From: Gammaproteobacteria bacterium
GTDB taxonomy: Bacteria > Pseudomonadota > Gammaproteobacteria > Eutrophobiales > Eutrophobiaceae
DNA length: 64,000 nt
Assembly: GCA_028281365.1 (NCBI GenBank)
Contig: JANQJZ010000015.1
Span: 13,879 to 77,878 of the forward strand
Direction: 5' to 3'
Part shown: positions 5,000 through 27,195 of the stretch, one piece after another
How the letters are laid out: every line of letters begins with the position of its first letter
Numbering within the stretch: the first letter of the stretch is position 1
Made by a program: the position numbers and the translations under genes
The notes under the pieces: model-generated
Databases searched by the model: none
What the model was told of the DNA's origin: nothing
The model's input: the letters and a program-made list of their open reading frames with translations, nothing else

Positions 5000-5452
5000 T
5001 TAAGGAGCATCAGTTACAGAAATATCAATACTTCTGGAAACATAGGTTATACCACCTAGTGTTCCTTTCGATGTAGTAATGCCTAAATTATAAACGCAAT
5101 ATGTTGATGATGCTTCTGTTATTGTATTTTCAGTACAACTTGTTACATTGCCTTGAAACCCGTTAGCACCACCCAAAGTAAAATTAATTGTTGCACCATT
5201 TATGGCAGGCGCGGTTGTACAACAATCTGTTCCACATGTACAAGCAGGCCTGTTTAATGCCTGATATATCGCCCATTCAGCAGTACTTCTGGTAGCAAAC
5301 CATGCTTGCATGGAACCAAGAGATTGAGTTGTATTCAAAGAACCAATATTCGATAGTGTTGCCATATAGATACCTAAAAGGGAAAATAACACAATCAAAA
5401 CAACTGCAATGATAGCGCTAAAACCTTTTTGCTTTTCCTGTCTGATATTCAT
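5000..5452 (-). CDS. MSHA minor pseudopilin, MshP/PilX-like.
   Basis: 150 aa. N-terminal hydrophobic pilin-like segment QKGFSAIIAVVLIVLFSLLGIYMATL lacks Glu5. It is the last gene of the pilin operon. Confidence 0.55.
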   Translation of the reverse strand: MNIRQEKQKGFSAIIAVVLIVLFSLLGIYMATLSNIGSLNTTQSLGSMQAWFATRSTAEWAIYQALNRPACTCGTDCCTTAPAINGATINFTLGGANGFQGNVTSCTENTITEASSTYCVYNLGITTSKGTLGGITYVSRSIDISVTDAP

Positions 5453-6345
5453 GGCTGATTATCAACATGGGCTTGTTGTAAGAGTGTTACTTCCTGACCC
5501 AGATTATTATCTCTCACTGTAATATCAAGAGTTACTAATCCTGCACGAGTGGCAGTACCTGGATCGTAGGTGAAGGTACATGCATTAATCATATTTACTA
5601 ATAAGTTATTTTCAGTCACGCCTGTAAAATCTCCTGGAACTGCGGTTGGCTGAGCTGAAAGAATTCGATATTGAGCCAAACGGCGAATTGTACCTCCATT
5701 ACAAACAAAACTGACAGGCGTATCCACAATTTGAAAACGTTGATTGGGCGACCGAAAAGGAAACCGAAATGTTGGAACATCTGAAGAATTATCAAATGTT
5801 ACACTATTTGCAGCAATACTTGTTATTGATGCTACATTATCTAAATCATATGCATCAGCATTGGTTTGATTAGTATTAAAAATAACCAGACAATCTACAA
5901 CATTATCTCTACAGTCAGTTCGGTTTCCTGCTGAGCCCGTTGCATCGATATTAGCAAAATTTTGTAATGTACCTAATACTTCAAAACAATCAGTTGCACT
6001 GGTAAAACTGAGTCTATTTGCAGCGATACTACCGCATGGTGCTGCTGCTCCCCCTGGATGAGTAAGATTTCTGTAACGACCACCGTCTACAGTCCGTAAA
6101 AACTCGATTGCAGTCGATCCTGATATTCTTACGCTATTAGGTAATGCCAGTCGGATCTCCCGCGTCATCCTCAACAATGCAGTCTCTGCTATATCAACAA
6201 GATTAGCCCGCTGTTCGACCTGTACAAATTGGATCATAGGTCCTCTAAGAATAGTAAAAAGGACAGTCGACAAAATTCCAATAATTAAGATAACGACGAT
6301 TAATTCAATTAAGGTAAAACCTTTTAAATGTCTATTAAGCAACAT
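5449..6345 (-). CDS. MSHA minor pilin, MshO-like.
   Basis: 298 aa. Class III signal and N-methylation motif KGFTLIELIVVILIIGIL. It overlaps neighbouring genes by 1-4 nt, consistent with an operon. Confidence 0.6.
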   Translation of the reverse strand: MLLNRHLKGFTLIELIVVILIIGILSTVLFTILRGPMIQFVQVEQRANLVDIAETALLRMTREIRLALPNSVRISGSTAIEFLRTVDGGRYRNLTHPGGAAAPCGSIAANRLSFTSATDCFEVLGTLQNFANIDATGSAGNRTDCRDNVVDCLVIFNTNQTNADAYDLDNVASITSIAANSVTFDNSSDVPTFRFPFRSPNQRFQIVDTPVSFVCNGGTIRRLAQYRILSAQPTAVPGDFTGVTENNLLVNMINACTFTYDPGTATRAGLVTLDITVRDNNLGQEVTLLQQAHVDNQP

Positions 6346-6965
6346 CAGAAGTTTGTCCTGTAACCCGTAACTGTTATATCCACATCGGCCAGGTTTGCAT
6401 GTGTCACTCTTACATCTATACGTAGACTTCGACCAGATGTTCCATTTAACCCGTTTAAGTTTGCGCCAGCAGCATCATTAATAGTTACCGTTACACTAAA
6501 ATCATTTAAATCTGTTATTTGATTGCCGGTCTGGTCTCTCACAACTGTATCTGGTAAATTAGTGTAATCACATACATCATCGAATAATGCACGGTTAGTA
6601 CCTTCAGAAGTTGGACCATTAGGCCCTCCACAGGTATTTGTCGATGCCGCTGCACATGCTGATTCTGTACAACCTTCACCTGCCGTAGTAGAAGAACACT
6701 CATTTAATCCATCGCCGTCCGGATCAAAATCTGAGTCACAGAATTGTTTTAAAGAAATTTCTTCCAAATAAGCACGTGCAATAGAATTGGCTTGTTGACG
6801 TATCATTGGATCAATACTATTGACTGTGGTCGCATTCATAAGTGTTGCAAATGAAGCAACACCGATACCTATTACAACTATGGCCACAACCAATTCTATC
6901 AATGAGAAACCTTTATTATTCATGAACGAATCCGGTATTTGCTTCAACAGTAACAGTTTGACCAC
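6345..6965 (-). CDS. MSHA minor pilin, MshD-like. The true start is probably the internal Met near position 6923.
   Basis: Prepilin motif NKGFSLIELVVAIVVIGIGVASFATL. Cys-rich C-terminal domain. Confidence 0.6.
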   Translation of the reverse strand: MVKLLLLKQIPDSFMNNKGFSLIELVVAIVVIGIGVASFATLMNATTVNSIDPMIRQQANSIARAYLEEISLKQFCDSDFDPDGDGLNECSSTTAGEGCTESACAAASTNTCGGPNGPTSEGTNRALFDDVCDYTNLPDTVVRDQTGNQITDLNDFSVTVTINDAAGANLNGLNGTSGRSLRIDVRVTHANLADVDITVTGYRTNF

Positions 6966-7350
6966 TTCCGAAATTTACTGTCTGCAAACCTCCAGTTGGT
7001 GCACCTATGTTATTAAAGCTAAAAGCAACTGCAGGACTCACACCAGGGTCACTATCAGTACAAAAATTATTATTACCGGTAGATGGATTAGGGATATTTG
7101 ATGCACCACAAGAACTGCCGACATCAAATGCAATCGTGCAAGATGCAGATGACAATGACACATTAACCTGACAACCACTGGTAATTGCCAATTTTTGTCC
7201 AAAACGAATCATTGCGGTTCCTTGTTGGAACCCTCCCGTCTCTCTAAACGTATCAAGATTGAGTCTGGGTAATACCAGGGCTGAAAGAACGCCTAACAGG
7301 ATAATGACAACTACAAATTCGATTAATGAAAAGCCAGTATTTTTTTTCAT
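6916..7350 (-). CDS. MSHA minor pilin, MshC-like.
   Basis: 144 aa. Prepilin motif KNTGFSLIEFVVVIILLGVLSALVLPRL. Confidence 0.6.
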   Translation of the reverse strand: MKKNTGFSLIEFVVVIILLGVLSALVLPRLNLDTFRETGGFQQGTAMIRFGQKLAITSGCQVNVSLSSASCTIAFDVGSSCGASNIPNPSTGNNNFCTDSDPGVSPAVAFSFNNIGAPTGGLQTVNFGSGQTVTVEANTGFVHE

Positions 7351-7353
7351 AAT

Positions 7354-9216
7354 TTAATGTGACAACTCGTAACTAACTTTATTCAGTACCTTTGATCTAG
7401 GATACATCTTCAAATAATTGGATAAAAGTAACCTGGCTTGATTTTCTTTTCCAAATTTAACTAATGTACGAATATATTCGGCTTGTACTGTGTGATGATG
7501 CGGTTGCCATTCTAATACGCTCAAGAACCAACTTAATATTGTCTTCTCTGATTCAGTGTCATCGAGTAAATCTGATTTTTCTCTATGCAAGATAGCCCGT
7601 TGTAATCGACTTTGGACATCATAAATATCTATGTCCATGATTTTCTTATATAATTTATCCGCATGATTTGCTGCCTTTCGATCATTTTTAACCAAAGCAA
7701 TATTTTTCCAATAGTCAGCTTCTAATAAATAATTTTGTGTTTCTGCTGGTGAAAATCTTCTTGCTCTTTCAAATAACTGTGAAGCCTGATCAATCAGGCC
7801 TGCATTCAGCATACTAGTTCCTGCTCTATAACTAATTTGAGCGATAACGAAGTTAAACAGAAAGATTAATATACTGATACTAATCAAGATCCTGAATAGA
7901 CGAATAAAATTGACTTGAAGAATATTATTTAAATTGACATTAAAACTGTATAACTCCTTATTATTAACAAAAACTTTATTTAATATGGCTGTATATCCCG
8001 CAAAAATAAATAGTAAAATAGGGACATAAAAGACATAGCTCGCTAATGCATGAGTAAAATAACTTGTTAATCCCGATATAATTGCAATTACCCATATCTT
8101 TTCTTCACTACTCTTTATTTTCAGGTATTTAATTCCCTGCCAATAAGTTGTGAATATAATAAAAATGACTATCAATATTCCTGGCAAACCAAGTTCAAGC
8201 CAGTATTGCAGATAATCATTATGTACATAATGAGTGTACGTATATCTTAAATTTTCATAATAAAAATATATGAATTTAAAATAACCGATTCCATTTATCG
8301 GCTGTTCTTTTATTAATTCTAACGAGGTTTTTGCAAGCTCTATCCGTTGTTGTATTGATCTTGTTCCTTTATTTGTTATAGCTATATTTATACTGTTATC
8401 TAAAACCTGAATATTATTTTCTGGCTGTTGGGTAATCTCAATCGGACCAGAAACAATCATGGCCTTTGTGCCATACAGAATAAAAATAACAGCCAGAAAT
8501 CCTGCAAATATTTTCAACCACGTTATTAATGGTATTTTATTTTTAACAAATCTAAATAAAATAATTAGGCAAACTAATCCTGACACAAATGCTATCCAGC
8601 CTGCTCGACTCTGTGTGCTCACTAAACCGGCAAAAATTAAAATAAAACAAAGATAATTTTTAGATAATTCAGTTTTATTACTAAATAAGTAGATTGTAAT
8701 TAACGGTAAAAGAATAAGATTTAAGGCAGCTGCAAATGTGTTGGGATTAGCAAAAATTACACTTGCAGCCACTCCTTTATAATTTATCTGGGCATAATTA
8801 AAAATAAATTGAACTATTGCCCAGCAACTTAATATTGAAAAAATAATTACGATACCATAATAAACAAATTGAATTTGTTGTTTGTCCAGTACTGATATTA
8901 TGAAAAAACCTGAAAAAAAATAAGTAAGGAAAAAATATATAACAGGATAGTTGTTAAAATCAGATTTTGTTATGCTGTTAAAAATTAGTAGCATTAATAA
9001 TATAATACCAATTGCGGGTAATGAAAATGTAACTACTGAAAAGGGTCTTCTTACTAACCAAACAATAAGTATTAAAAATACACCTAGCCATAATCCCAGA
9101 TAGTCATGACTTGATGATACTGAAAGACAAAATATTAATCCTGAACAAATAAAAAAAGAGGGCCAAAAGACCCTCTTTTCAATACTAAACATATGACCCA
9201 CTCTTATCCAGAGCAC
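7354..9216 (-). CDS. Wzy_C / O-antigen-ligase-family membrane protein with a C-terminal TPR-like soluble domain. Candidate pilin O-oligosaccharyltransferase, PglL/TfpO-like.
   Basis: 620 aa with about 10-12 TM helices. Family signature YTHYVHNDYLQYWLELGLPG (H-N-x-Y-L-Q...E-x-G-x-x-G). C-terminal roughly 180-aa helical-repeat domain. Its start overlaps the stop of the major pilin gene by 13 nt. Confidence 0.6.
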   Translation of the reverse strand: MLWIRVGHMFSIEKRVFWPSFFICSGLIFCLSVSSSHDYLGLWLGVFLILIVWLVRRPFSVVTFSLPAIGIILLMLLIFNSITKSDFNNYPVIYFFLTYFFSGFFIISVLDKQQIQFVYYGIVIIFSILSCWAIVQFIFNYAQINYKGVAASVIFANPNTFAAALNLILLPLITIYLFSNKTELSKNYLCFILIFAGLVSTQSRAGWIAFVSGLVCLIILFRFVKNKIPLITWLKIFAGFLAVIFILYGTKAMIVSGPIEITQQPENNIQVLDNSINIAITNKGTRSIQQRIELAKTSLELIKEQPINGIGYFKFIYFYYENLRYTYTHYVHNDYLQYWLELGLPGILIVIFIIFTTYWQGIKYLKIKSSEEKIWVIAIISGLTSYFTHALASYVFYVPILLFIFAGYTAILNKVFVNNKELYSFNVNLNNILQVNFIRLFRILISISILIFLFNFVIAQISYRAGTSMLNAGLIDQASQLFERARRFSPAETQNYLLEADYWKNIALVKNDRKAANHADKLYKKIMDIDIYDVQSRLQRAILHREKSDLLDDTESEKTILSWFLSVLEWQPHHHTVQAEYIRTLVKFGKENQARLLLSNYLKMYPRSKVLNKVSYELSH

Positions 9217-9650
9217 AACCCATCAGGTAATGTCACTGTTCTCGTACTTGCATTACCGCCTACTGATACTTGTATGTTATCTACTGCAGCTGCATTACAA
9301 GATACAGTCAGACCAGTATCACTGCCACAAGTAACATTATTATCAGTAGTTGCATTAACAGTAAGGTTGATTTGGTCTGTGCCTACATCACAATCCACAT
9401 TACTCCAAATGCCACCTGCTGATGATGCAGATCCATTATTTGCAGCAAACTGTATGACTGCAGCAGATGCATATGCCCCAACAATACCATCAGCCACTGC
9501 TGATCTGGCATCACCCGAGACAGAGGCAAATCTGGGTAATGCTGTCGCTGCTAAAATACCTAATATGACAAATACCACGACTAACTCTATTAATGTAAAA
9601 CCTGATTGTTGTCTTTTCATAACAACCTCCACACCTGGGCCGCAGCCCAT
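9204..9650 (-). CDS. mshA: MSHA major pilin, MshA/MshB-like type IVa prepilin.
   Basis: 148 aa. MKRQQSGFTLIELVVVFVILGILAATALPRFASVSGDAR resembles V. cholerae MshA/MshB N-termini. S/T/A/G-rich C-terminal region with a Cys pair. Confidence 0.75.
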   Translation of the reverse strand: MGCGPGVEVVMKRQQSGFTLIELVVVFVILGILAATALPRFASVSGDARSAVADGIVGAYASAAVIQFAANNGSASSAGGIWSNVDCDVGTDQINLTVNATTDNNVTCGSDTGLTVSCNAAAVDNIQVSVGGNASTRTVTLPDGLCSG

Positions 9651-9844: not shown

Positions 9845-10447
9845 TCACAAATTAAACGGGTTTGTCATCCAAATAATATAAACCGACCCTAGAAAAACAA
9901 CCAAGCCAAATACTCTCGGGTTTCCAGGTAATATCTCTTCTGGAAGGTCTTTACGGTTATCAAAAACTTTTAATGGGGAATCTGTGTCTACCCATTTATT
10001 ACTCAATTTTTCAAGCTTTTTGAGTGCACTTGGTCTAAGAAAAATTACGATACTCATTAAAAAAGATATACATAGCCCCCCAAGAATTATGTAAAAAATT
10101 ACTACAAATAACCATTCTTCAAAATTTGAGTTTGATAAATGTATTAATGATTGCTCTATATAGTTTATTCCTTTGTGAATTGTTAAAAAATACAGACAAA
10201 TTACTGAAGTTATTAAAACCAATGCTCCAAATAATCTATGGTGTCTATAAATAAACCGTTCATGATAAATGGGAACATTTATTTTATTAAAGAACTTTTC
10301 TGTTGAAACCCAACGATTTATTTTATGAGATTTACTCATGATATATTCTGGAACAAGCATAAATACTAAACTGACGGGTACTAGCAGTACCGCCAGGATA
10401 AATAATACATATTCAATTAATGCAACAATTTCATTCGTATACTGCAT
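9845..10447 (-). CDS. Hypothetical 4-TM inner-membrane protein embedded in the MSHA locus.
   Basis: 200 aa with four hydrophobic helices and no recognisable motif. It sits between mshF and the pilin promoter region. Confidence 0.4.
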   Translation of the reverse strand: MQYTNEIVALIEYVLFILAVLLVPVSLVFMLVPEYIMSKSHKINRWVSTEKFFNKINVPIYHERFIYRHHRLFGALVLITSVICLYFLTIHKGINYIEQSLIHLSNSNFEEWLFVVIFYIILGGLCISFLMSIVIFLRPSALKKLEKLSNKWVDTDSPLKVFDNRKDLPEEILPGNPRVFGLVVFLGSVYIIWMTNPFNL

Positions 10448-10463
10448 AATTATAACTTCTATA

Positions 10464-11066
10464 TTAATTCCACGTATATTGATTGACAGATTTCAATTTC
10501 ATATCAATGAGGCTGTCTATATCATGGTTAAACTGTTTATTACCATCATTATCTTTAAAATCAAGTTGAATTTTATATACGGCTCTTGGTATTCCTTCCA
10601 GTTCTGTATCAAAGAATTCATCATTGTTTATAGTATAAATTAATTCCTTGGTTTTTATATCGAAATACCATTTACCCTTCTCAAGAATCGATCCCTCATA
10701 AACAATTTCACCGGCATAATTAATTGGTGCATTTATTATTTCATTTGCAAATACAGTATTAATAATATTGATATCCTTTCCAAATTCATCAATCTCAATT
10801 TTTGAACGCATATCTTCCATAGGATTCATATCCAGTATTTCATCAAGTTTTTCAGACTGATTTCTCATGATCGCAATCGAAACCCGATAATTCAATGCTG
10901 TATTAATATTATTAACTGTTCTACTCACCATGCTTTGTTCAGCCTGAGAAAATGTACCAATCATATACCTGCTGAACGTGGCAATTAAAAGCGAAATCAT
11001 CAATAATGCAAAAACTAACTCTGCCCGGGTCAGATTCCGGTCTAACCATCTGTGTGCTATATACAT
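10464..11066 (-). CDS. MshF-like MSHA biogenesis protein.
   Basis: 200 aa with a single N-terminal TM (LVFALLMISLLIATF). Its position immediately downstream of mshG, with a 1-nt junction, matches mshF. Confidence 0.45.
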   Translation of the reverse strand: MYIAHRWLDRNLTRAELVFALLMISLLIATFSRYMIGTFSQAEQSMVSRTVNNINTALNYRVSIAIMRNQSEKLDEILDMNPMEDMRSKIEIDEFGKDINIINTVFANEIINAPINYAGEIVYEGSILEKGKWYFDIKTKELIYTINNDEFFDTELEGIPRAVYKIQLDFKDNDGNKQFNHDIDSLIDMKLKSVNQYTWN

Positions 11067-12289
11067 TATCTAACAACTTTCGAAAGATCCCACATGGGTA
11101 AGAGAATACCCAATGCTAAAATTAGCACCATAGCACCTATTGCAACTATTAAAACCGGTTCAATTGATGCACTTAAGTTTTTAATATCGTAATCTACTTC
11201 TCGCTCATAATAATCCGCAACCTCAGTCATCATATCATCGACCTGGCCCGTTTCTTCGCCAACGGCCATCATTTGTAAAACAAGTGGAGTAAACATATTA
11301 CTTAAAGCAGCCGTCTTCGTCAGTGCCTCACCTCTTTCAATACCGTTACGCATATTTAATATATGTTCGCCAATATATTCATTATCAACAGCCCTGGAAA
11401 CTACTGTTAGTGCCTGAATTAATGGAACCCCTGAGGTTAGTGCCATAGAAAAAGATCGAGCGAATCTGGCCAAGGTTGCACGATTGATGATATCTCCAAC
11501 AATTATGATCTTTAACTTAAACCTGTCCCATATATAGCGACCCTGTTCTGTTTTTGTATATAAATTAAACCCTATTATCAAGCCGACAACAGATGCTAGA
11601 ATTAAAGGCCACCAAGAAACAAAAAAATCTGATGTGCTAATCAATAACATCGTCTGCCAAGGTAATTCCGTATCCGCCTTTTCAAATATAGGAATAAATG
11701 CTGGTATTACCCAGATATTTATAATCGCAATAGCAATAGCAATGGCAATTAATACAAATATAGGGTAGCGCAGAGCAGCTTTTATTTGCTCACGCGTTTC
11801 TTTTTCCCGCTCTAGGTATTGTGAAATTCTTAAAAAAGATTCTTCCAATCTTCCGGTATTTTCTCCCACCCTGATCATACTTATATATAACGTTGAAAAA
11901 ATATCCGTATGCCTTGCCAATGAACTGGATAAATCCCGACCTGATTCCAGGTTAGACAATATATCTTTCTGCGCATCTACCATTTTAAAATTTCTTGTTG
12001 ACTGGATTAATCCAGTAAAACAACGCACCATTGGTACACCAGCCTTCATTAACGTATACATCTGCCTGCTAAAAAGAATCAGGTCATCCAAATTTGGAGG
12101 CTTTTTATTAAGGTAACTGGAAAAGGATATATCTGATTCTGCCTTTTCTGCTCTCTCTTTAATATCAATTGGAGTGATACCAATATTAAATAACTGTGTC
12201 GCAACCGCGTCGATAGTCCCGGCATCAATCTCGCCTTGAACGAGGCTTCCTCGTGCATTCCTGCCCTTATAAGCAAACTGGGGCATCAA
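11066..12289 (-). CDS. mshG: MSHA biogenesis platform protein MshG, GspF/PilC family.
   Basis: 407 aa. Two T2SS-F repeats and 3 TM segments. Overlaps mshE by 4 nt. Confidence 0.85.
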   Translation of the reverse strand: MMPQFAYKGRNARGSLVQGEIDAGTIDAVATQLFNIGITPIDIKERAEKAESDISFSSYLNKKPPNLDDLILFSRQMYTLMKAGVPMVRCFTGLIQSTRNFKMVDAQKDILSNLESGRDLSSSLARHTDIFSTLYISMIRVGENTGRLEESFLRISQYLEREKETREQIKAALRYPIFVLIAIAIAIAIINIWVIPAFIPIFEKADTELPWQTMLLISTSDFFVSWWPLILASVVGLIIGFNLYTKTEQGRYIWDRFKLKIIIVGDIINRATLARFARSFSMALTSGVPLIQALTVVSRAVDNEYIGEHILNMRNGIERGEALTKTAALSNMFTPLVLQMMAVGEETGQVDDMMTEVADYYEREVDYDIKNLSASIEPVLIVAIGAMVLILALGILLPMWDLSKVVR

Positions 12290-14034
12290 CCAGATACCTC
12301 ACCATCTTTGGAAACTATTTCTTCATCTACTACACTTTCTATATCAGCAGATATTCGAATAACTTCATCCATTGTTGTTATACCTTCGACCGCGTATTGA
12401 AGCGCAACCATATTTAATGGTCTAAAATTTCTTGAATTTTGTGCCTCCTTCATAAAATGGCTACTATCGCCGTGACTTAATATATTGGACAAAGCCTTAT
12501 CGAACTCAAGTAATTCATACACGCCGATTCGACCCCGATAGCCGGTATTATTACAGTGTGCACAACCTATTCCTTTTTTAAATGTGACGTTAAATTGCTT
12601 TTCATTAACAAAACTATTTAACCATCCTTTCTGTTGACCGGTTAATTCGGCTGGCTGAGCACAACTTTGACAAACCCTTCTCACAAGACGTTGGGCTAAG
12701 ATAGCATGTAATGCCGATGCAAGTAGATAGCTTTTAATCCCCATATCCATCAAACGATTGACGGTACTAACAGCATCATTTGTATGTAAGGTTGATAAAA
12801 CTAAATGGCCTGTCATAGCTGCACGTAATGCAATCTCGGCTGTTTCTTCATCACGCATTTCACCGATAAGAACTATATCTGGATCTTGTCTTAATGCCGA
12901 TCGAAGTACAGTCGCAAAAGTAAGACCTATGTCTGAGTTAATCTGGACTTGATTTATGCGGGGTAATTTATATTCAACAGGATCTTCAACCGTGATTATC
13001 TTCTTTTCTGCAATATTTAATGTCTGTAATGCGGCATACAAGGTCGTTGTCTTACCACTACCTGTAGGACCTGTAACCAGTATCATGCCATGCGGCCGTC
13101 GGATCAATTTCTCAAAACGATTCAGTAAAGGTTCAGGCATACCAATTGCGTTTAAATCTAGCGTACCGCCTGTTTGATCGAGTAAACGCATTACAACTGA
13201 TTCACCATACTGTACAGGCATGGTTGATAAACGAATATCGATATTATGATCTTTAACTTTTAAACTAAACCGACCATCTTGAGGTAATCTCTTTTCTGAA
13301 ATATCCAGACCCGCCATTAATTTTAATCTTAGTACAAGTGCAGGGGCGATTCGGATCTCGTCCATTGTATGTTCCTGTAATACACCATCTACGCGTTGTC
13401 TAATCCGAATTACCTTTTCATCAGGCTCAATATGTATATCGGAGGCATTAATTTGAATAGCATCTTCAAATAGAGATGCAAGCAATTTAACTACAGGAGC
13501 CTCATTAACATCAGCATCAGCCAAAAGAGCACCGAGATCAATATCACCTTCCGTTAACTCTTCATTAAGCTGTTCTGCAAAATCACTGATCTGATCAGTT
13601 TTTCTGTAAACAGTATCGATCGTTTTTAAAAGATCAATTTCCCTTACAACTGCGAGTTTTATAGGTTTCTTGAGAATCCTTGATAATTCATCATAGGCAA
13701 AAATATTTGTTGGATCTGCCATTCCAACTAATACACCCGTATCGTCCGTACTGAGCGCAACAGCGCGAAAACGGCGTGATTGTATTTCTGGAATTAATTT
13801 GATAACTTCAGGCTTGAATTTATAGTGTAATAAATCCACGAATGGAATTTTTAACTGTTCAGATAATGCCTCCAGCATTTGATCTTCAGTTAAATAACCA
13901 TCCTCAATCAATACACGCCCAAGCTTTTGGCCACTTTTTTTCTGCCCCTCTAAAGCCTGTTCAAGTTGAGCTTGTGATATGAGTTTATGCTGTATTAACA
14001 GATCACCAAGTCTGATTTTCTTACGTGGATTCAT
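12286..14034 (-). CDS. mshE: MSHA pilus assembly ATPase MshE, GspE family with an N-terminal c-di-GMP-binding MshEN domain.
   Basis: 582 aa. Walker A LVTGPTGSGKTTT. C-terminal tetracysteine CQSC...CAHC. Tandem N-terminal MshEN motifs RLGDLLIQHKLISQAQLEQALEGQ and KLGRVLIEDGYLTEDQMLEALSEQ. Confidence 0.9.
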   Translation of the reverse strand: MNPRKKIRLGDLLIQHKLISQAQLEQALEGQKKSGQKLGRVLIEDGYLTEDQMLEALSEQLKIPFVDLLHYKFKPEVIKLIPEIQSRRFRAVALSTDDTGVLVGMADPTNIFAYDELSRILKKPIKLAVVREIDLLKTIDTVYRKTDQISDFAEQLNEELTEGDIDLGALLADADVNEAPVVKLLASLFEDAIQINASDIHIEPDEKVIRIRQRVDGVLQEHTMDEIRIAPALVLRLKLMAGLDISEKRLPQDGRFSLKVKDHNIDIRLSTMPVQYGESVVMRLLDQTGGTLDLNAIGMPEPLLNRFEKLIRRPHGMILVTGPTGSGKTTTLYAALQTLNIAEKKIITVEDPVEYKLPRINQVQINSDIGLTFATVLRSALRQDPDIVLIGEMRDEETAEIALRAAMTGHLVLSTLHTNDAVSTVNRLMDMGIKSYLLASALHAILAQRLVRRVCQSCAQPAELTGQQKGWLNSFVNEKQFNVTFKKGIGCAHCNNTGYRGRIGVYELLEFDKALSNILSHGDSSHFMKEAQNSRNFRPLNMVALQYAVEGITTMDEVIRISADIESVVDEEIVSKDGEVSG

Positions 14035-15475
14035 CTTTTATTAAGTTATTCAACATACTAATACGTTTGGTAAGAAAATCTCTGGATTCACCGGCTAATG
14101 AAGGATTGCTATACGCTTTTTGGTAAGCATACAAGGCATCCTGATATCGTTTTAATGATTCAAGTGATATACCTAAACCTATCCACCAGACTGATTTAAG
14201 TGGATTTATTTGTAATAAATTTCGATAGATTCTGGCAGATTCGTTGTGGTTATTAAGCTTCTGTAATACAGCTGCCAATAAAGCATAATAATCAATATTA
14301 GAAGACAAATCCGGTTTATTCTTTAGTAAGATTTCTTTCGCTTGTAAAACTTTATCTTCGTTCAGTAGCAAACGAGCATACATCTTCATCCATTCAAGAT
14401 TATCCGGGTATTGAATCATACCTTCATTAAGTACACTGTAAGCCAGATCCGTATGGCCTTGATTTGATAGTATCAGTGCTAATGTAGAACGTGCATTTGT
14501 ATGATCAGGATCATGATCTAATACTGAATTTAATTTTCTGAGACTGCTTGAAATATTACCACTTTTATATTCCGCATACGCTTGTTTAAAAAGTTTATCC
14601 GCATATGCATTTTTTTTCTGTTTTACCGGAGTTTTTACAAGCTCACCTTTGAAAGCAACTTCTTTCTCTTCCTCAACTTGCATATCGACAATTTCTTCGA
14701 GCACATTAGTTTCTTCTATATCATCATTAGCTTGATCCCATTCGTAATCCATCATTACTACTAAATCATGTTGCGCACCATTTTTACCCGTACCACTTTT
14801 TCTTATATTCAAAGGCTGATCAGATTCCAGAATCAATTTAAACCTGTTTTGATCATTAATTAAATAACGTATAGCAACAATAGGTTCTACAGGCTCTAAA
14901 TCTTCAAGAACAAACCCAAGTTGTGCATTATTAACTTCTACAATAATGCGATCCGGGTTATCTAATCCATATACCAGATAATCGATTTCTCGAGGCATTT
15001 TCATTACAAGGTTAATACCTTGCTCACTTGATTCAAAAAATATGTCGTTAATTCGATTTATTGAATCAGTATCAGAAATAATTTCTTTATTATCTGATAC
15101 TGATTCAATAAAAATATTCTCATCAAGTCTCAATAAATGTTGGTTATTGTTGGGGATTACTTTTTTAATACTTTTTGCACTAATAACATTATCCGCATTT
15201 TCTTTTTCTGGTTCCGATAATTCAATTATTTTTGGCTTATATGTATTTTCAGTTATATGATTTTGTTGTTCATAACCATTTAAAAATACTAAAAATAATG
15301 TAAACAATGAACATAATAAAACTATCACTATAAATAATTTGAAAAATGACCTGTTAGTTTGGCTTAACTCAAGATCATATGCAGAATAAAGCCCATCAAG
15401 AATCACGTCCTGATTTTCATCCAGATAAGCATTACGCTTTTCCAGATCACTCAACATTTTGTTAATCAAGCTCAT
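14021..15475 (-). CDS. mshN: MSHA biogenesis TPR protein MshN.
   Basis: 484 aa. N-terminal TM, low-complexity linker, C-terminal multi-TPR array. Position between mshM and mshE. Confidence 0.7.
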   Translation of the reverse strand: MSLINKMLSDLEKRNAYLDENQDVILDGLYSAYDLELSQTNRSFFKLFIVIVLLCSLFTLFLVFLNGYEQQNHITENTYKPKIIELSEPEKENADNVISAKSIKKVIPNNNQHLLRLDENIFIESVSDNKEIISDTDSINRINDIFFESSEQGINLVMKMPREIDYLVYGLDNPDRIIVEVNNAQLGFVLEDLEPVEPIVAIRYLINDQNRFKLILESDQPLNIRKSGTGKNGAQHDLVVMMDYEWDQANDDIEETNVLEEIVDMQVEEEKEVAFKGELVKTPVKQKKNAYADKLFKQAYAEYKSGNISSSLRKLNSVLDHDPDHTNARSTLALILSNQGHTDLAYSVLNEGMIQYPDNLEWMKMYARLLLNEDKVLQAKEILLKNKPDLSSNIDYYALLAAVLQKLNNHNESARIYRNLLQINPLKSVWWIGLGISLESLKRYQDALYAYQKAYSNPSLAGESRDFLTKRISMLNNLIKDEST

Positions 15476-15477
15476 TT

Positions 15478-16365
15478 CTAATTACCAAATAACCATCGTG
15501 AAAAATCCGGAACAAAAGAGGAGAACCCCGATTCAGTTTTTTCTTTTGTATGTTCTATATCCAGAGCTGCTATATTCACATGTTTATGAGTAACTTTTTC
15601 CTTACCCTCTCCATAAGCACAGATTAAGGCCTTATGACACAAAATATTTATTAATCGTGGAATTCCTTCACTGTGGCGGTATATAGCTTCATAAGCACGA
15701 CGTGTGAAAAGCCTATTATTTGTATAGCCCGCAACCTGTAGTCTATGTTTAATATACGCATACATCGCCACCTTATTTAATGGCAATAATCTATATGAAA
15801 ATGTAATTCGTTGCTTCAACTGCCTTACAGAAGGCTGATTTAACAACATATCTAATTCAGGCTGACCAAATAATACAACTTGTAACAACTTCCTTTTTTC
15901 AGTTTCAAGGTTCGTTAATAATCTCAGTGACTCCAACGTCTGTACCGGCATTGCCTGGACTTCATCCAGACAAACAACAACTCTTTTACCCCTTCGATGA
16001 GTGTCTAATAACGCTCGCGTTATTAATTTCATTAACACATGCTGTGAAACGGAATTGGTATATGAGATAGATAATGAATCTGCAATTGCAAATAATAAGC
16101 TATCAGGTTTTATGTAGGGGTTATGAATATAGGCCGTAATAAATTCTTTACTAACAGCTTTCATTAGTGTTCGACAAAGTATAGTTTTTCCGACACCAAC
16201 TTCCCCGATAACTTTTACAAATCCTTCGCCACTGCGGAGCGCAATTGTTAAAACATTTAAAGCATCCTGATAACCGGCTCTATTCATAAAAAAGCTGGTA
16301 TCAGGTGTTATACCAAATGGAAGTTCAGTTAATTGAAAATGTTGTAAATACATAATTTTTCTCAA
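15478..16365 (-). CDS. mshM: MSHA biogenesis ATPase MshM, ExeA-like AAA+.
   Basis: 295 aa. Walker A GEVGVGKT and Walker B VVVCLDE. Overlaps mshL by 4 nt. Confidence 0.8.
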   Translation of the reverse strand: MRKIMYLQHFQLTELPFGITPDTSFFMNRAGYQDALNVLTIALRSGEGFVKVIGEVGVGKTILCRTLMKAVSKEFITAYIHNPYIKPDSLLFAIADSLSISYTNSVSQHVLMKLITRALLDTHRRGKRVVVCLDEVQAMPVQTLESLRLLTNLETEKRKLLQVVLFGQPELDMLLNQPSVRQLKQRITFSYRLLPLNKVAMYAYIKHRLQVAGYTNNRLFTRRAYEAIYRHSEGIPRLINILCHKALICAYGEGKEKVTHKHVNIAALDIEHTKEKTESGFSSFVPDFSRWLFGN

Positions 16366-18161
16366 TTAGAGATATTATCTTTTGCAAATAAATCATCCAG
16401 AAATGTGTCTGGTGGTGGTTCATTCATAACTTCTCGAAGTCCTTTAAGATTACCTCTAGACTTAATCAATTCATTATTCCATTCATCAACTCCTTGAACG
16501 ACAATCGGTTTTAATAGAATCACAAGTTCACTTTTTACTGTCTCTTGTCGTTTATGGTTAAATAATTTTCCAATACCTGGTAAATCACCTAATAAAGGAG
16601 TTTGTGCATCTGTATCGGTTGTTGAATCCTGCATTAATCCTCCTATAACAATTACCTGACCGCTACGTGCTCTTACGATACTATCTGATTCACGTACCGT
16701 ACTTAATGCAAGTGGAAGTTGTTGGGTTGCATTGCCAAGCGTAATCGTTTTCTGTTGGTCAACAACTTCACTAATAGAAGGATGCACATGAAGAGTGACA
16801 TCACCTGATTGACTAATTTGAGGAGTTACATCTAATGCAATTCCTGAAAAAAATGGGGTTAAGGTTACATTAGGATTAAACTGCGTCGCTGTAGATACAG
16901 TTGAAGTTGTCGTTGTAGAAGATACATCGGTAACAAAAAACTCATCACTTCCTACTTTTATTATTGCCTTCTGATTATTTAAAGTCGCAACACGTGGACT
17001 GGAAAGGACTTGTACATTACCTTGCGTTTCGAGTAACTCTATAAACGCATTAAAATCACCGAACTCCAACGCCAGTGTGAAAACGCCTCCGAATGCTGAA
17101 GCAGCGGCACCAGAAATAGCTGAAAAATTATTTGGATTCAGATTACCTGTATTACCTGATAAACCACTTAAGCCACTCTCACCAATTAGCACTGTACCAC
17201 CACCGACATTCGATGCGGTGATTGATTCATTTCCGGGCGTTAATAAAGAGCTCCAGTTGATCCCGGATTGAAAACGATCATTCAACTTGACTTCGATGAT
17301 CTTCGCTTCCAAGATAACCTGACGTTGAACGATCAATTGGGTTGCCTGTAGATAAGCTTCAACCTCCCTTAACTCATTAGGCAGTGCCCTAACAACGACG
17401 ACACCTGATTGTGGATTCACTACAACACTTCGACCATCGCCTGTACCAACTATAGCCTCTACGGATTCCTGAAGTTCTTGCCAAAATGTTGTTAATGATT
17501 GTTGTGTTCGTATCTCTGTACCTATAACGGCAGCGCTTGATGATGTTGTAGTAGAACCACCTTCATCAGTGGTAGCTTCACCCTGGGTTAAAGAACCAGA
17601 ACTAACCAATGTTTGTGAGGTACCCGTTCTTTCTACATTTAAGTAATTTATCTGATAGATACGTGCTCTTAAACGGCCTGGTAATACCTGAAATCCATAT
17701 TGTGTACTAATAAATTCAAAACCATAAACATCTCGTGCTGCTTCCAATACTTCAGGAATTGTTACATTACGAAGGTTTAATGTTATTGATCCCGTTACTT
17801 CCGGATGGATGACCATATTGTAATCTGTCCCATCAACCAAACTGAGAAAAAACTGATCTGCTGGAACCGCATTAACCGATATATCAAATCTTGCTTCATC
17901 TTTAATTTCAGGAACTGTAGAAGCATCAAGTGCAATCGTTGGTATTAATGTATCTGCAACACTATCAGGTACAGATGCCTGGTTGGCATTATCACTAACC
18001 GATTTGTTAACAACATTTTCCATATCATCAACAACGTCTTGCCTGACCACTTCTTCCTGGCAACCAGTCAGAAAAGTTAATAAAAAAATTAAAAATATAT
18101 AGACAGTCTTCTTCATTATCTCTTCAAAAAAATTTAGTAATTTTATTAGCATAATATTCAC
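16362..18161 (-). CDS. mshL: MSHA secretin MshL, GspD/PilQ family outer-membrane channel.
   Basis: 599 aa. Lipoprotein-type signal (LTFLTGC). Secretin N-domain VVVVRALPNELREVEAYL. C-terminal secretin core ending ELVILLKPIVV. Confidence 0.85.
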   Translation of the reverse strand: MNIMLIKLLNFFEEIMKKTVYIFLIFLLTFLTGCQEEVVRQDVVDDMENVVNKSVSDNANQASVPDSVADTLIPTIALDASTVPEIKDEARFDISVNAVPADQFFLSLVDGTDYNMVIHPEVTGSITLNLRNVTIPEVLEAARDVYGFEFISTQYGFQVLPGRLRARIYQINYLNVERTGTSQTLVSSGSLTQGEATTDEGGSTTTSSSAAVIGTEIRTQQSLTTFWQELQESVEAIVGTGDGRSVVVNPQSGVVVVRALPNELREVEAYLQATQLIVQRQVILEAKIIEVKLNDRFQSGINWSSLLTPGNESITASNVGGGTVLIGESGLSGLSGNTGNLNPNNFSAISGAAASAFGGVFTLALEFGDFNAFIELLETQGNVQVLSSPRVATLNNQKAIIKVGSDEFFVTDVSSTTTTSTVSTATQFNPNVTLTPFFSGIALDVTPQISQSGDVTLHVHPSISEVVDQQKTITLGNATQQLPLALSTVRESDSIVRARSGQVIVIGGLMQDSTTDTDAQTPLLGDLPGIGKLFNHKRQETVKSELVILLKPIVVQGVDEWNNELIKSRGNLKGLREVMNEPPPDTFLDDLFAKDNISN

Positions 18162-18529
18162 TTATTGGACTTGTACTCTTTTTTTATCTGGTTTTTAAAA
18201 AGTCTGACTATCAGTTTTCTGTCTTCATGCTCAATAACAACTGAAAGCGGTTTAATCTCTATTACTTTACCTGGTCCAATTTCTTCGCCTTCTCTAACTA
18301 ATTTGTTATTGACAATGGCACTTTTGCTCTGCTCAGATATTCTGATAGCAGAAACTCGCCAGTTGACCTTTTCTTTCGTTTCAATTTCCTCTTCAACAAA
18401 AACAATTGGTTCAGGACTATCAATTACAAAGTTAGCCGGTCTGGTAGGATCAGGTAACTCAGCCATTGCCTGAAGTTGCAATGGCAAGATGCATATCAAA
18501 AGTACAAATTGTTTTATATGACTAAGCAT
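18158..18529 (-). CDS. MshK-like small periplasmic pilus biogenesis protein.
   Basis: 123 aa with an N-terminal signal peptide. Position between mshJ and mshL. Confidence 0.5.
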   Translation of the reverse strand: MLSHIKQFVLLICILPLQLQAMAELPDPTRPANFVIDSPEPIVFVEEEIETKEKVNWRVSAIRISEQSKSAIVNNKLVREGEEIGPGKVIEIKPLSVVIEHEDRKLIVRLFKNQIKKEYKSNK

Positions 18530-19237
18530 CTAGACTCCTATCCACTCCTTATTCAAACTTAATGTAAATATTTCTATTGATGCATTTGCATCAGGATATT
18601 CGCTAACAGTTAACTTAAAGTTATCCCAGAAAAAACCCCACTCGAGTTTTTCCAGACTTTTCAAATAACTAAGTGTTGTTAGGTAATCACCAATGAAATC
18701 AATTCTTAAACCATGTCGATAAGCATTATCAATGTTATCTGCTGTTAATTTCGTTTCATCTTCTTTTAAACCTATATTTTTTGTCACAGCCTCTTGTTCA
18801 GTTTCCTCTTGTACAACTAATGGAGCTACACCAAGACTTTTTAAACCTAGTAACGTTAAACCGCCTGTTTTATGCAGTACTGTCTCAAGAATTTTCGGCA
18901 TATCTTTTGGTGAAACAAGATTCTGCGTTGAAGATTCCAATTCAGCTTGCAATTCAACCAATCTGGATCTAAGTGATTTCAACTTTGCAATATTTTCTGC
19001 ATCAGGATCTTCTTTAGTCTTTGTAAGTAATTGTTGCATACGATCATTGAGTACAGTTCTTTCTGCATTTTTCGTATTAATTTCATTAATCAATGCTTTT
19101 TGTTTTATCTCCAAAGGCTGTATCAATACTGAATCCCAAACTGTAAACATCACAGCAATTGTTCCTATAAAAATGACTGCTCTCTCACGAAGAGTTAAAC
19201 CATCAATCTTTTCAGCAATTTGCTTCAACTGTTCCAT
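18530..19237 (-). CDS. MshJ, a PilO-like inner-membrane pilus alignment protein.
   Basis: 235 aa. N-terminal TM followed by a coiled coil (LRSRLVELQAELESSTQNL) and a periplasmic domain. Confidence 0.6.
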   Translation of the reverse strand: MEQLKQIAEKIDGLTLRERAVIFIGTIAVMFTVWDSVLIQPLEIKQKALINEINTKNAERTVLNDRMQQLLTKTKEDPDAENIAKLKSLRSRLVELQAELESSTQNLVSPKDMPKILETVLHKTGGLTLLGLKSLGVAPLVVQEETEQEAVTKNIGLKEDETKLTADNIDNAYRHGLRIDFIGDYLTTLSYLKSLEKLEWGFFWDNFKLTVSEYPDANASIEIFTLSLNKEWIGV

Positions 19238-19247
19238 AACTCTTCAC

Positions 19248-19844
19248 TCAGTTCGTACTTAACAAAAAATTAAGTTCAGTATCGCCTTCATCTGTCTCTA
19301 CTCTTGCTAACTCCATTACATTAAATGCCGAACCTTCTAAACTTGCTTCTTCGGCTAATTTTTGTATGTAAATAGGAACAAGTTCAGAAGACAAAGTTTT
19401 ACCTTTTAACCCTAAAGCAGTTCCACCTTGTTTAATTTCCACATCAGTTAACCAGGTGCCTTGCACATGACCTTTAGCAAAAGCTTCAAGATAAGTTGAA
19501 AAACCAGATGAGTTACCAAATGATTTATTTAATAGAACTCTCGAAATTCGCTCTCGTTTTTCCAGTTCTTTACTAAGTTTTGCAATCTCTTTTTCAAGCA
19601 ATTTATTCTTGCCTTGTGTAGACTGTGCTCTTTCAAGCGTCAACAACTGAGTCTTTAGTTGTTCAAGTTCCGAATTAATATTTGAAAGCTGTTTCTCATA
19701 AGGTTTAAGGCTTATACTTTGATAAGCATACAAGCCTGTAAAAATAACTAAAAAGAAAATACCAACCTGTAGCATCGTTACCGCAGAAAAAACAATCTTT
19801 TGTTTTCGAAACATTGGTTGATAGAGGTTTATTTGCTGCATCAT
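19248..19844 (-). CDS. MshI C-terminal module as a separate PilN-like protein.
   Basis: 198 aa. TM plus long coiled coil (NSELEQLKTQLLTLERAQ...). Overlaps the upstream PilM-like gene by 4 nt (ATGA). Confidence 0.6.
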   Translation of the reverse strand: MMQQINLYQPMFRKQKIVFSAVTMLQVGIFFLVIFTGLYAYQSISLKPYEKQLSNINSELEQLKTQLLTLERAQSTQGKNKLLEKEIAKLSKELEKRERISRVLLNKSFGNSSGFSTYLEAFAKGHVQGTWLTDVEIKQGGTALGLKGKTLSSELVPIYIQKLAEEASLEGSAFNVMELARVETDEGDTELNFLLSTN

Positions 19845-20800
19845 AAGGCGACTGCCTCCTGACGTAATGCTGACCCTATCGCCAATAAACAGCGTGATTG
19901 CACTAGAGGTGGAATGTTTTCAGGCACATCGATCAACTCGTTAACATCCAGAAACCTTGCAGGAATCGCTAACTGCTCTGACAGATATTCCATCACACCA
20001 GGTATTTCCTTTCCTAATGGAGTCATCACAATTGATGAAACCTGTGGTTGCGAAAAGTGACTCTCGTAATAATCCATGGAACGTTGAACTTCAATAACAA
20101 TGTTATCTAACCAACGTTGACAGGATTCATCATCCATTACACTTAAAACTGATTCAGGTAATATGGATGTACCCACGTTTATTGTTCTGGATAAATAAAG
20201 TGAAGATTGTTTTGTAATAGTGATCAATCCCTGATGTTGCCCAACATAAATTAACGCAACGCCACCCACATCCTCGGGTAACATAGCAGCAATATTCCGT
20301 AATGCTAATTCCGGAATATCAATAATATTTAGTTTTAAACCGGCATTATTAAGTTGACCGATTAATTCTCTTACCCGATTTGATTGCGCTACAACGGCAT
20401 ACATCATTTTGTTTTTGCCTGCAGCTTTATAAGAGGGCACTTCAAACACATCGACGACTGCATCATCAATATGAAAATCGATTAAATCTTTAACCCGCCA
20501 ACGAATTGCTGCACGTAGCTCTTCGGGTTGAACGTCTGGCGCCTCAACTAATAATAAGTTGTAATCACCCAGTTCCAGTGAACTGACACATTCGTATTCA
20601 TCAAGATTATATTGCTTTGTTATTCGAACCAACTCAGCATCACGAATGGAAATATTTTCTATCTCTTGTAATTCACATAGTTCAAGAGAAGGCGGCAGGT
20701 CTTTTTCACGACGCACGCGGGCTATCGTTATCGCGTTCTCATCCGAACAAACAGCGACTTTAGCATCTTTCTTAAGTCTCTTTTTGAAAAAGTCCAGCAA
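19841..20800 (-). CDS. mshI: MshI N-terminal module, a PilM-like actin-fold protein. First gene of the secretion operon.
   Basis: 319 aa cytoplasmic protein with PilM/FtsA-like organisation. A 306-bp AT-rich promoter region lies upstream. Confidence 0.65.
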   Translation of the reverse strand: MLDFFKKRLKKDAKVAVCSDENAITIARVRREKDLPPSLELCELQEIENISIRDAELVRITKQYNLDEYECVSSLELGDYNLLLVEAPDVQPEELRAAIRWRVKDLIDFHIDDAVVDVFEVPSYKAAGKNKMMYAVVAQSNRVRELIGQLNNAGLKLNIIDIPELALRNIAAMLPEDVGGVALIYVGQHQGLITITKQSSLYLSRTINVGTSILPESVLSVMDDESCQRWLDNIVIEVQRSMDYYESHFSQPQVSSIVMTPLGKEIPGVMEYLSEQLAIPARFLDVNELIDVPENIPPLVQSRCLLAIGSALRQEAVAL

Positions 20801-26260: not shown

Positions 26261-26264
26261 AATA

Positions 26265-26672
26265 TTAATATGATTCTCTCTGATAGATTATTGGTGAATC
26301 ATTATCTCGATAACCGGTATTGTTGCTCTCACCAGCCTCCGTTTTTTGATCATCATCAACCACTCCGGGTCCGGATTCATTCATCTTACCATTGCCTTGC
26401 AGTTGTTTTTCTATAATTTCCGGTTGCTGTTTACTCACTATCATATCTCCGATCCACCATGCTGCACTTGCAAAACCACCCGCTAATAATAAAACGATCC
26501 ACCACGGTATTTTGTTCAGGCTTTTTTGAGTCCTGGTTCTCTTTGCATGAAGTAGTAACCTGCTTTCAATAGTCGACAGTCTTGATTGGTCGGCGTCAGG
26601 CATGGATTCATAAACCTGTACAATCAGGTGTTCAACCTCTGACTCTGAAACAGGTGGAAATTTATGTGTCAC
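26265..26672 (-). CDS. Putative single-pass anti-sigma factor.
   Basis: 135 aa. Cytoplasmic N-terminus, one TM (WWIVLLLAGGFASAAWWI), short periplasmic tail. Overlaps the ECF sigma gene by 11 nt and ends 4 nt before the giant gene. Confidence 0.5.
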   Translation of the reverse strand: MTHKFPPVSESEVEHLIVQVYESMPDADQSRLSTIESRLLLHAKRTRTQKSLNKIPWWIVLLLAGGFASAAWWIGDMIVSKQQPEIIEKQLQGNGKMNESGPGVVDDDQKTEAGESNNTGYRDNDSPIIYQRESY

Positions 26673-27195
26673 TTGAGTCCTCTTGCCATCGCTGCTTCAG
26701 CTTATTAATGATGGCTGCACATTGTCTACGTACTGTGCCTTCCGGTAATTCCAGCATTGTTGCGATCTCTTTATGTGTTAACCCAACTCTATAACGCATG
26801 AACAACAGATTTTGTTCATCCTGGGGAAGTTTTTTTATTAATCTTTCAAGATAAAGTTGTTGATCCTTATATTCAGGATCCTGGCCCGCTTGTTGTTCTA
26901 TATCTATATCAATATTATCGACAGGTGACGCTTTCTCTCTACGATAAGCATCAATATGTAAATTGATCGCTATTCGATATAACAACGCTTTGGGAGATCG
27001 TAAATCTTTACAAACAACCTGAATAAATTTAAGAAAAGCATCCGCAAGCAGGTCATACGCGGCATCCGGATTACACCCCCTGTTTTTTAAAAATTGCCAC
27101 AGACGAGGTGACTCGGAACGATAAAAGCGGCTGAATGCATTTGTATCTGCATCTTTACAATATTGTTCGAGTAATTGTTTCGAATTGTCCTGCAT
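26662..27195 (-). CDS. ECF-type RNA polymerase sigma-70 family factor.
   Basis: 177 aa. Region 2 (AAYDLLADAFLKFIQ...LYRIAINLHIDAYRR) and region 4 HTH (LTHKEIATMLELPEGTVRRQ). Confidence 0.8.
   Translation of the reverse strand: MQDNSKQLLEQYCKDADTNAFSRFYRSESPRLWQFLKNRGCNPDAAYDLLADAFLKFIQVVCKDLRSPKALLYRIAINLHIDAYRREKASPVDNIDIDIEQQAGQDPEYKDQQLYLERLIKKLPQDEQNLLFMRYRVGLTHKEIATMLELPEGTVRRQCAAIINKLKQRWQEDSSDT

Follow-up and report, generated by a model that had tools for sequence, protein, structure and literature searches.

A Wzy_C-TPR membrane protein encoded behind the major pilin gene of MSHA-type pilus operons: a candidate pilin O-oligosaccharyltransferase

The window analyzed here is a stretch of 64,000 nucleotides (nt) from a Gammaproteobacteria bacterium of the Eutrophobiaceae (assembly GCA_028281365.1, contig JANQJZ010000015.1, positions 13,879 to 77,878 of the forward strand). 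It carries an operon for a type IV pilus of the mannose-sensitive hemagglutinin (MSHA) type, in which the gene for the major pilin (9204 to 9620, minus strand) is directly followed by a gene for a polytopic membrane protein of 612 amino acids (aa; 7354 to 9192, minus strand). This protein joins a Wzy_C domain and a WaaL-type fold to an additional transmembrane helix and a C-terminal tetratricopeptide repeat (TPR) domain, and its gene keeps the same position in dozens of related genomes. Given its sequence and its neighbors, the enzyme is plausibly a variant of the pilin O-oligosaccharyltransferases (O-OTases), of a type that would be widespread and so far undescribed, while glycosylation of the pilin itself is a prediction from gene context. 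O-linking oligosaccharyltransferases (OTases) are few, with four recognized classes (PglL, PglS, TfpO, and TfpM), and they are wanted for the production of conjugate vaccines, as acceptor sequon and glycan tolerance differ from class to class.

Gene order and enzyme architecture

The strongest evidence for a link between the enzyme and the pilus is synteny. Scanning a single genome for each species, we retrieved 184 relatives and analyzed the best 80 by similarity, reading gene order in the related loci by searching them with the MSHA proteins of the window. These best 80 of 184 come from uncultured Gammaproteobacteria, Betaproteobacteria, Methylobacter, Thiohalophilus thiocyanatoxydans, and Nitrospirae, and they include the cultured carriers Methylobacter tundripaludum and T. 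thiocyanatoxydans DSM 16326. The order common to most loci is MshE, MshG, (MshF), pilin, Wzy_C-TPR protein, MshC, MshD, MshO, and MshP. The earlier note on this DNA, made from the sequence alone, had proposed a comparison of MSHA loci in related genomes as a check on the gene; that comparison returned a prepilin gene ending less than 200 nt upstream of the enzyme gene in 54 of 67 testable loci. Genes resembling mshC, mshD, and mshO lie downstream in 51 of 71 loci, and both sides hold in 41 of 58. Such linkage to MSHA-type pilin operons in dozens of genomes speaks against reading the protein as a misplaced WaaL or Wzy. Furthermore, the pair of pilin and enzyme genes is kept where the minor pilin genes have moved (locus L019) or are absent (L008 and L010). 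The link of the enzyme is to the major pilin, since the pair persists without minor pilins alongside.

The family extends beyond single copies in MSHA clusters. Two of the loci (L011 and L032) belong to one chromosome, OZ271833.1, which has two Wzy_C-TPR genes, one of them in the MSHA cluster; in the region 6410 to 11578 of L011, the second copy is divergent from a cluster of three pilin-like genes, including one for a 319-aa pilin. In another locus (L056, 8936 to 13591), the pilin gene has two tandem open reading frames (ORFs) behind it, each of the size of the Wzy_C-TPR gene (662 and 659 aa), an arrangement that resembles the tfpO-pglL tandem of Acinetobacter. A subfamily of 650 to 666 aa with the same architecture is also found behind a pilin gene (L082, 2 to 2352; L083, 1943 to 4654). 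The pilin of L082 stops at its last cysteine (...ITSAGC, then the stop codon), as do those of L034, L039, L056, and L060. With a full-length profile, the family comprises at least 1,382 clusters at 50% identity at E-values up to 1e-30.

Several observations bear on what kind of protein this is. The Pfam model Wzy_C (PF04932) matches residues 182 to 343 (8164 to 8649, minus strand; residues are numbered on the 612-aa protein throughout) with an E-value of 2.2e-22 and 79.9 bits against a cut-off of 31.7. The motif HNDYLQYWLELGLPG is present, which bears out the assignment to the O-antigen ligase family made in the earlier note. All 24 family members match Wzy_C, and in these 24, at 19 to 46% identity, S195-R196, R283, G301-x-G303, and H324-N-D-Y-L-Q (8206 to 8223) are invariant. 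Invariance of the catalytic positions, the GxG, and the HNDYxQ motif at this level of divergence argues for a working enzyme. A search of the PDB with the single enzyme sequence gave no match, and the family profile was needed; with it, the WaaL of Cupriavidus (7tpg) was found at an E-value of 2.9e-11 over 340 aligned residues. In this alignment R196, R283, and H324 of the enzyme correspond to R191, R265, and H313 of WaaL. The equivalent Arg/Arg/His residues are reported to be important in Escherichia coli WaaL and in PglL of Neisseria meningitidis (PMC3643930), and the conserved histidine is required in Wzy_C OTases (PMC9829042). The top structural matches were WaaL, FtsW, and RodA, with no structure of the GT-C glycosyltransferase fold among the matches listed. 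In short, the protein has a WaaL-type polytopic fold with the conserved Arg/Arg/His on periplasmic loops. It belongs to the Wzy_C/WaaL superfamily, and we place it in no named class of O-OTase.

The architecture differs from that of WaaL at the C-terminal end. Twelve WaaL-like helices are followed by a 13th transmembrane helix (TM13; residues about 427 to 453; 7834 to 7914, minus strand), which is absent from WaaL and was delimited from AlphaFold2 secondary structure, hydropathy, and charge distribution. Beyond it lies the TPR domain of eight helices (residues about 455 to 612; 7357 to 7830, minus strand). The protein has a basic N-terminus and positively charged loops at 358 to 365 and 409 to 434. 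By the parity of 13 helices with the N-terminus inside, the TPR domain would be periplasmic and share its side of the membrane with the catalytic loops. A C-terminal helical-repeat domain in the periplasm had been described in the earlier note; the repeat is confirmed and can now be named, whereas its side of the membrane depends on the helix count.

The junction between pilin and enzyme

The two genes were initially thought to overlap. From its most upstream GTG, the enzyme ORF spans 7354 to 9216 (minus strand) and encodes 620 aa, and the prepilin ORF spans 9204 to 9650 (minus strand) and encodes 148 aa. Both frames are present in the window, and from them the earlier note had read a 13-nt overlap and translational coupling. 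The overlap, however, holds only from the upstream GTG. In its public record (P0001), the protein has 612 aa and starts at the ATG at 9192, its closest homologue (P0006) starts likewise (MFSIEKRAF...), and an alignment of 18 homologues begins at the same position. The start is therefore most likely ATG 9192, which leaves an 11-nt spacer (9193 to 9203, minus strand) after the pilin stop codon (9204 to 9206) and no overlap. Pilin-to-enzyme gaps in the related loci are mostly 4 to 30 nt.

An element resembling a Rho-independent terminator lies within codons 5 to 13 of the enzyme gene (9143 to 9180, minus strand). It consists of a G+C-rich stem of 12 bp, GAAAAGAGGGTC/GGCCCTCTTTTT, with a UUUU loop at 9180 to 9153, followed by a T-run to 9143, and our scan flagged it as terminator-like. 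The hairpin has a minimum free energy of -20.1 kcal/mol (z = -2.95), and none of 200 shuffled sequences was as stable. In the frame of the enzyme, the element encodes E-K-R-V-F-W-P-S-F-F.

This element is conserved. Of 58 related loci, 38 have a comparable hairpin and T-run 20 to 100 nt past the stop codon of the pilin; measured against background windows of the same loci, the corresponding figure is 19 of 1160 random 120-nt windows (1.6%), and it is 0 to 11% after other msh genes. Stems vary in sequence with the pairing kept, as in GAGGGTC/GGCCCTC, GGGCGC/GCGCCC, and GGGAGC/GCTCCC. A formal count of covariation was dropped because it would be circular, the segments having been selected for pairing. 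The hairpin falls within the open frame of the enzyme in 36 of the 38 loci, and in 35 a start codon in the same frame precedes it, so that the conserved N-terminal peptide K-R/G-A-x-x-P-S/F-F-F is the hairpin and its U-tract read as protein.

Pilin-accessory cassettes typically place a Rho-independent terminator behind the pilin gene, a hallmark thought to set stoichiometry (PMC11841053). The terminator-like element found here after the pilin gene would fit the definition of such cassettes given by the Burrows laboratory. Given the start at ATG 9192 and the conserved terminator-like hairpin that intervenes, we read the junction as one of attenuation rather than of translational coupling: expression of the enzyme looks to be attenuated by the hairpin, provided that the element acts as a terminator. 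It is speculation on our part that a ribosome starting at ATG 9192 could melt the hairpin and so raise read-through.

The pilin, the proposed role of the enzyme, and alternatives

The presumed acceptor is an MSHA-type pilin. Its frame is open up to an ATG at 9650 that has no ribosome-binding site, and the most likely start is the ATG at 9620, with GGAGG 6 nt upstream. This start would give a leader MKRQQSG followed by FTLIELV, a prepilin of 138 aa, and a mature pilin of 131 aa. The N_methyl model matches at an E-value of 1.1e-9, and the best sequence match in the PDB is the MSHA major pilin MshA (9lab, E-value 3e-13). The MshA match is N-terminal; the pilin also aligns over nearly its full length to PilA5, the narrow-pilus pilin of Thermus thermophilus (8qqj and 6xxe, E-value about 2e-8). 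Cysteines stand at positions 70, 91, 101, and 129, and the C-terminal end is LCSG, in agreement with the CSG ending reported earlier. The description of the C-terminal half as rich in Ser, Thr, and Ala needs toning down, as it is so only mildly: Ser and Thr make up 16 of 66 residues, and the three together reach a fraction of 0.32 versus 0.37 in the N-terminal half. The C101-C129 pair, which bounds a C-terminal disulfide loop, is 96 to 98% conserved in 57 related pilins and is followed by zero to three residues, often S-G. The residue after the last cysteine is Ser or Thr in 58% of these pilins. In the window pilin, the serine of the C-S-G terminus is penultimate and not conserved. A C-terminal serine acceptor of the TfpO kind was considered and not adopted, given the C-termini of the pilins and the lack of an invariant Ser or Thr in their alignment.

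We propose that the genes of the pilin and the enzyme may together make up a pilin-accessory cassette within this MSHA-type type IV pilus operon. The enzyme would be active, with its Wzy_C/WaaL fold, and would probably take a glycan linked to undecaprenyl pyrophosphate that is made elsewhere in the genome. On the periplasmic side of the inner membrane, it would then probably pass this glycan to a Ser or Thr in the MSHA pilin while the pilin is still anchored in the membrane and not yet assembled into the pilus. TM13 would set the TPR domain in the periplasm beside the catalytic loops, and there the domain would most likely dock the pilin, by analogy with the docking role proposed for the TPR domain of TfpW of Pseudomonas aeruginosa. 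The hairpin in the first codons of the enzyme gene would halt most transcripts past the pilin gene, giving much pilin and little enzyme. In favor of this reading, genes for lipopolysaccharide (LPS), capsule, core oligosaccharide, Wzx, Wzz, glycosyltransferases, and glycan synthesis all went without a hit in the scanned parts of the window. As a whole, the reading in which the enzyme glycosylates the MSHA pilin and a terminator attenuates its expression is the one we favor, with confidence somewhat above even.

Several points weigh against this reading. Within the Wzy_C superfamily, sequence alone cannot tell O-OTases from WaaL and Wzy proteins. The PglL_A model matches none of the 24 family members at E-values up to 1, and Wzy_C_2 matches weakly in 3 of 24. 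No pathway for the glycan donor was found among the scanned parts of the window. In the pilins, the alignment of 57 sequences contains no invariant Ser or Thr, the best columns reaching 58 to 67%, and the acceptor residue cannot be named for this reason; moreover, the pilins of the closest relatives end in CGG, and other pilins stop at the cysteine itself. The 80 loci were picked by similarity of the enzyme; they establish that the subfamily goes with pilin genes, but give no measure of how frequent the gene is among MSHA clusters. As for published systems, pglL_Vc of Vibrio cholerae lies just upstream of, and outside, the msh operon, and MSHA glycosylation there is only speculated upon; a cryo-electron microscopy paper on MshA of Shewanella oneidensis mentions glycosylation for flagellin only. 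Our literature searches returned no paper that connects MSHA loci to Wzy_C genes and no demonstration that an MSHA pilin is glycosylated.

Other explanations share part of this evidence. The enzyme could be a pilus-tied glycan transferase whose acceptor is not the major pilin but the minor pilins MshC, MshD, MshO, or MshP, or an MshQ-like adhesin, or it could be a general periplasmic O-OTase, like PglL, whose expression together with the pilus is a coincidence. Its gene does sit between the major and minor pilins, its 612 aa are closer to the length of general PglL enzymes (550 to 600 aa) than to TfpO or TfpM, the major pilin lacks a conserved Ser or Thr, and in V. cholerae the gene of the general OTase stands next to the msh operon. 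We nevertheless judge this alternative unlikely. The pilin-enzyme pair persists where the minor pilin genes lie elsewhere or are absent (L019, L008, L010, L054, L056, L058, and L069), whereas the converse is seen only in L055, and a terminator placed within the ORF would tie expression of the enzyme to the transcript of the major pilin.

Less probable again, in our estimation, is an ordinary WaaL ligase or Wzy-type polymerase that works on lipid A-core or a surface polysaccharide and has no action on pilus proteins. In both structure and profile searches a WaaL comes out on top, named homologues are labelled "O-antigen ligase," and the Wzy_C family includes both ligases and polymerases. The earlier note had set a better score as WaaL or Wzy, in a lipid A-core or O-unit polymerase context, against its own proposal; the context here is a pilus operon. 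Synteny with the pilin gene is kept across classes and phyla, WaaL lacks TM13 and the TPR domain, tandem copies follow the pilin gene in some loci (L056), and the genes that would accompany such an enzyme (core oligosaccharide, Wzx, Wzz, and glycosyltransferases) are among those not found in the scanned parts of the window. Finally, the protein might be a non-catalytic factor for assembly or a chaperone, like TfpY or TfpZ, built on a retained WaaL-like scaffold. Accessory genes behind a pilin gene are not always enzymes and share low, terminator-controlled expression (PMC11841053), and TPR domains commonly mediate contacts between proteins. Yet Arg/Arg/His and HNDYxQ show the pattern of invariance that is expected of a working active site, and we regard this last explanation as highly improbable.

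A broader proposal can also be made, to which we hold only tentatively and with somewhat less than even confidence. The enzyme would represent a fifth, undescribed class of bacterial O-OTase, with a WaaL fold, TM13, and periplasmic TPR docking, dedicated to MSHA-type pili and with its dosage set by the pilin terminator. Many MSHA-type pili would then be glycoproteins, and carriers of the class would be common among environmental Gamma- and Betaproteobacteria, methanotrophs, and Nitrospirae. Dosage of the enzyme would possibly be relieved only by a ribosome translating through the hairpin. Such a large pilin-linked class, equipped with a TPR domain of its own, would bring in a new mode of acceptor recognition. 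It would also predict frequent glycosylation of MSHA-type pili, which are key organelles of surface attachment in aquatic bacteria. Furthermore, a terminator written into the N-terminal codons of the enzyme would be a compact form of dual coding that fixes the ratio of pilin to enzyme.

The surrounding cluster and known systems

The cluster around the two genes is of the MSHA type, as the MshL equivalog, the MshE domain, and the order from MshI to MshP are all present. Upstream of the pilin gene, the assembly genes for MshI, I2, J, K, L, M, N, E, G, and F, together with an unassigned 200-aa membrane ORF, occupy 9845 to 20800 (minus strand), with the MshL and MshE assignments accompanied by PilB-, PilC-, and PilM-like matches. 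The MshL secretin reaches 273.6 bits against the cut-off of 250.2 of the equivalog model TIGR02519, and the MshE ATPase has the N-terminal cyclic di-GMP-binding domain (NF053729, E-value 5.6e-21). Downstream of the enzyme gene are the minor pilins already recognized in the earlier note, four pilin-like genes between 5000 and 7350, all on the minus strand: MshC-like (6916 to 7350), MshD/PilV-like (6345 to 6923), MshO-like (5449 to 6345), and MshP-like (5000 to 5452). They were assigned from the contig gene calls and from N_methyl and PilV matches within the group, and their order is kept in related loci.

Some neighbors fall outside this scheme. Between MshF and the pilin, a 200-aa membrane ORF (9845 to 10447, minus strand) has no Pfam or NCBIfam match; it is found at 25 to 51% identity in the closer MSHA loci and is without a counterpart in the V. 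cholerae locus. The MshM-like ATPase (15478 to 16365, minus strand) matches a model of XrtA/PEP-CTERM-associated ATPases at an E-value of 2.7e-66, below the cut-off of that model, and the MshN-like TPR protein has a weak match to the PEP-CTERM TPR lipoprotein PrsT. A 1717-aa DUF6701 protein, which we take to be MshQ-like, is encoded in the region 21107 to 27195 (minus strand), upstream of mshI and not at the end of the pilin operon. A gene for a sigma factor of the extracytoplasmic function type (26662 to 27195) and a 135-aa ORF precede the DUF6701 gene.

Compared with the V. cholerae MSHA locus (mshI to mshF, then mshB-A-C-D-O-P-Q), the assembly genes and the order of the minor pilins are the same. 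In V. cholerae, however, mshC (VC0410) comes immediately after mshA (VC0409), whereas here the Wzy_C-TPR gene stands between them, so the earlier statement that this gene is foreign to the canonical locus is upheld. V. cholerae has MshB in addition to MshA; the window has a single pilin, the extra 200-aa membrane ORF, and the MshQ-like gene upstream of mshI.

Among the known O-OTases, which we compared through Pfam models and through published sizes and descriptions, all four classes have the Wzy_C domain in common with the enzyme. TfpO and TfpM, which were set apart by description, have 440 to 470 and 420 to 440 aa, respectively, and use a C-terminal Ser or Thr as acceptor, while PglL (550 to 600 aa) and PglS (520 to 550 aa) use internal sequons (PMC9829042). 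In gene position the closest parallel is TfpO (PilO) of P. aeruginosa group I and Acinetobacter, whose gene also lies directly after the pilin gene, as the earlier note had pointed out; in Pseudomonas, tfpW has this position too. TfpO, however, has no added domain (Knoot 2022, Table 2) and serves a PilA-type system, whereas the protein described here adds TM13 and a TPR domain and belongs to an MSHA-type system; for TfpM, too, it is too long. PglL (PglO of Neisseria; PglL_Vc, VC0393) shares the Arg/Arg/His, a similar size, and a large C-terminal periplasmic region. It is a general OTase, usually unlinked to pilin genes or merely near them, whereas the enzyme gene here is inside a pilin operon. 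The PglL_A model, which the family fails to match, was designed to tell PglL apart from WaaL (Schulz 2013). The PglL-like or TfpO-like label first given to the protein is thus not one that we retain. The WaaL of Cupriavidus metallidurans (7tpg and 7tpj) remains the best match in fold and profile, with R191, R265, and H313 conserved, but it has about 400 aa and 12 transmembrane helices, and it acts on lipid A-core in an LPS context.

In overall design the enzyme can also be set beside TfpW of P. aeruginosa group IV (Pa5196 and PA7), a polytopic protein of about 646 aa that is encoded directly downstream of pilA and also has a periplasmic C-terminal TPR domain. TfpW is required for glycosylation of its pilin; it is a GT-C enzyme, modelled on ArnT, with a DDX motif, and it handles D-arabinofuranose. 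The catalytic fold of the enzyme described here is WaaL/SEDS-like. Because the two catalytic folds differ, the shared TPR architecture would be convergent.

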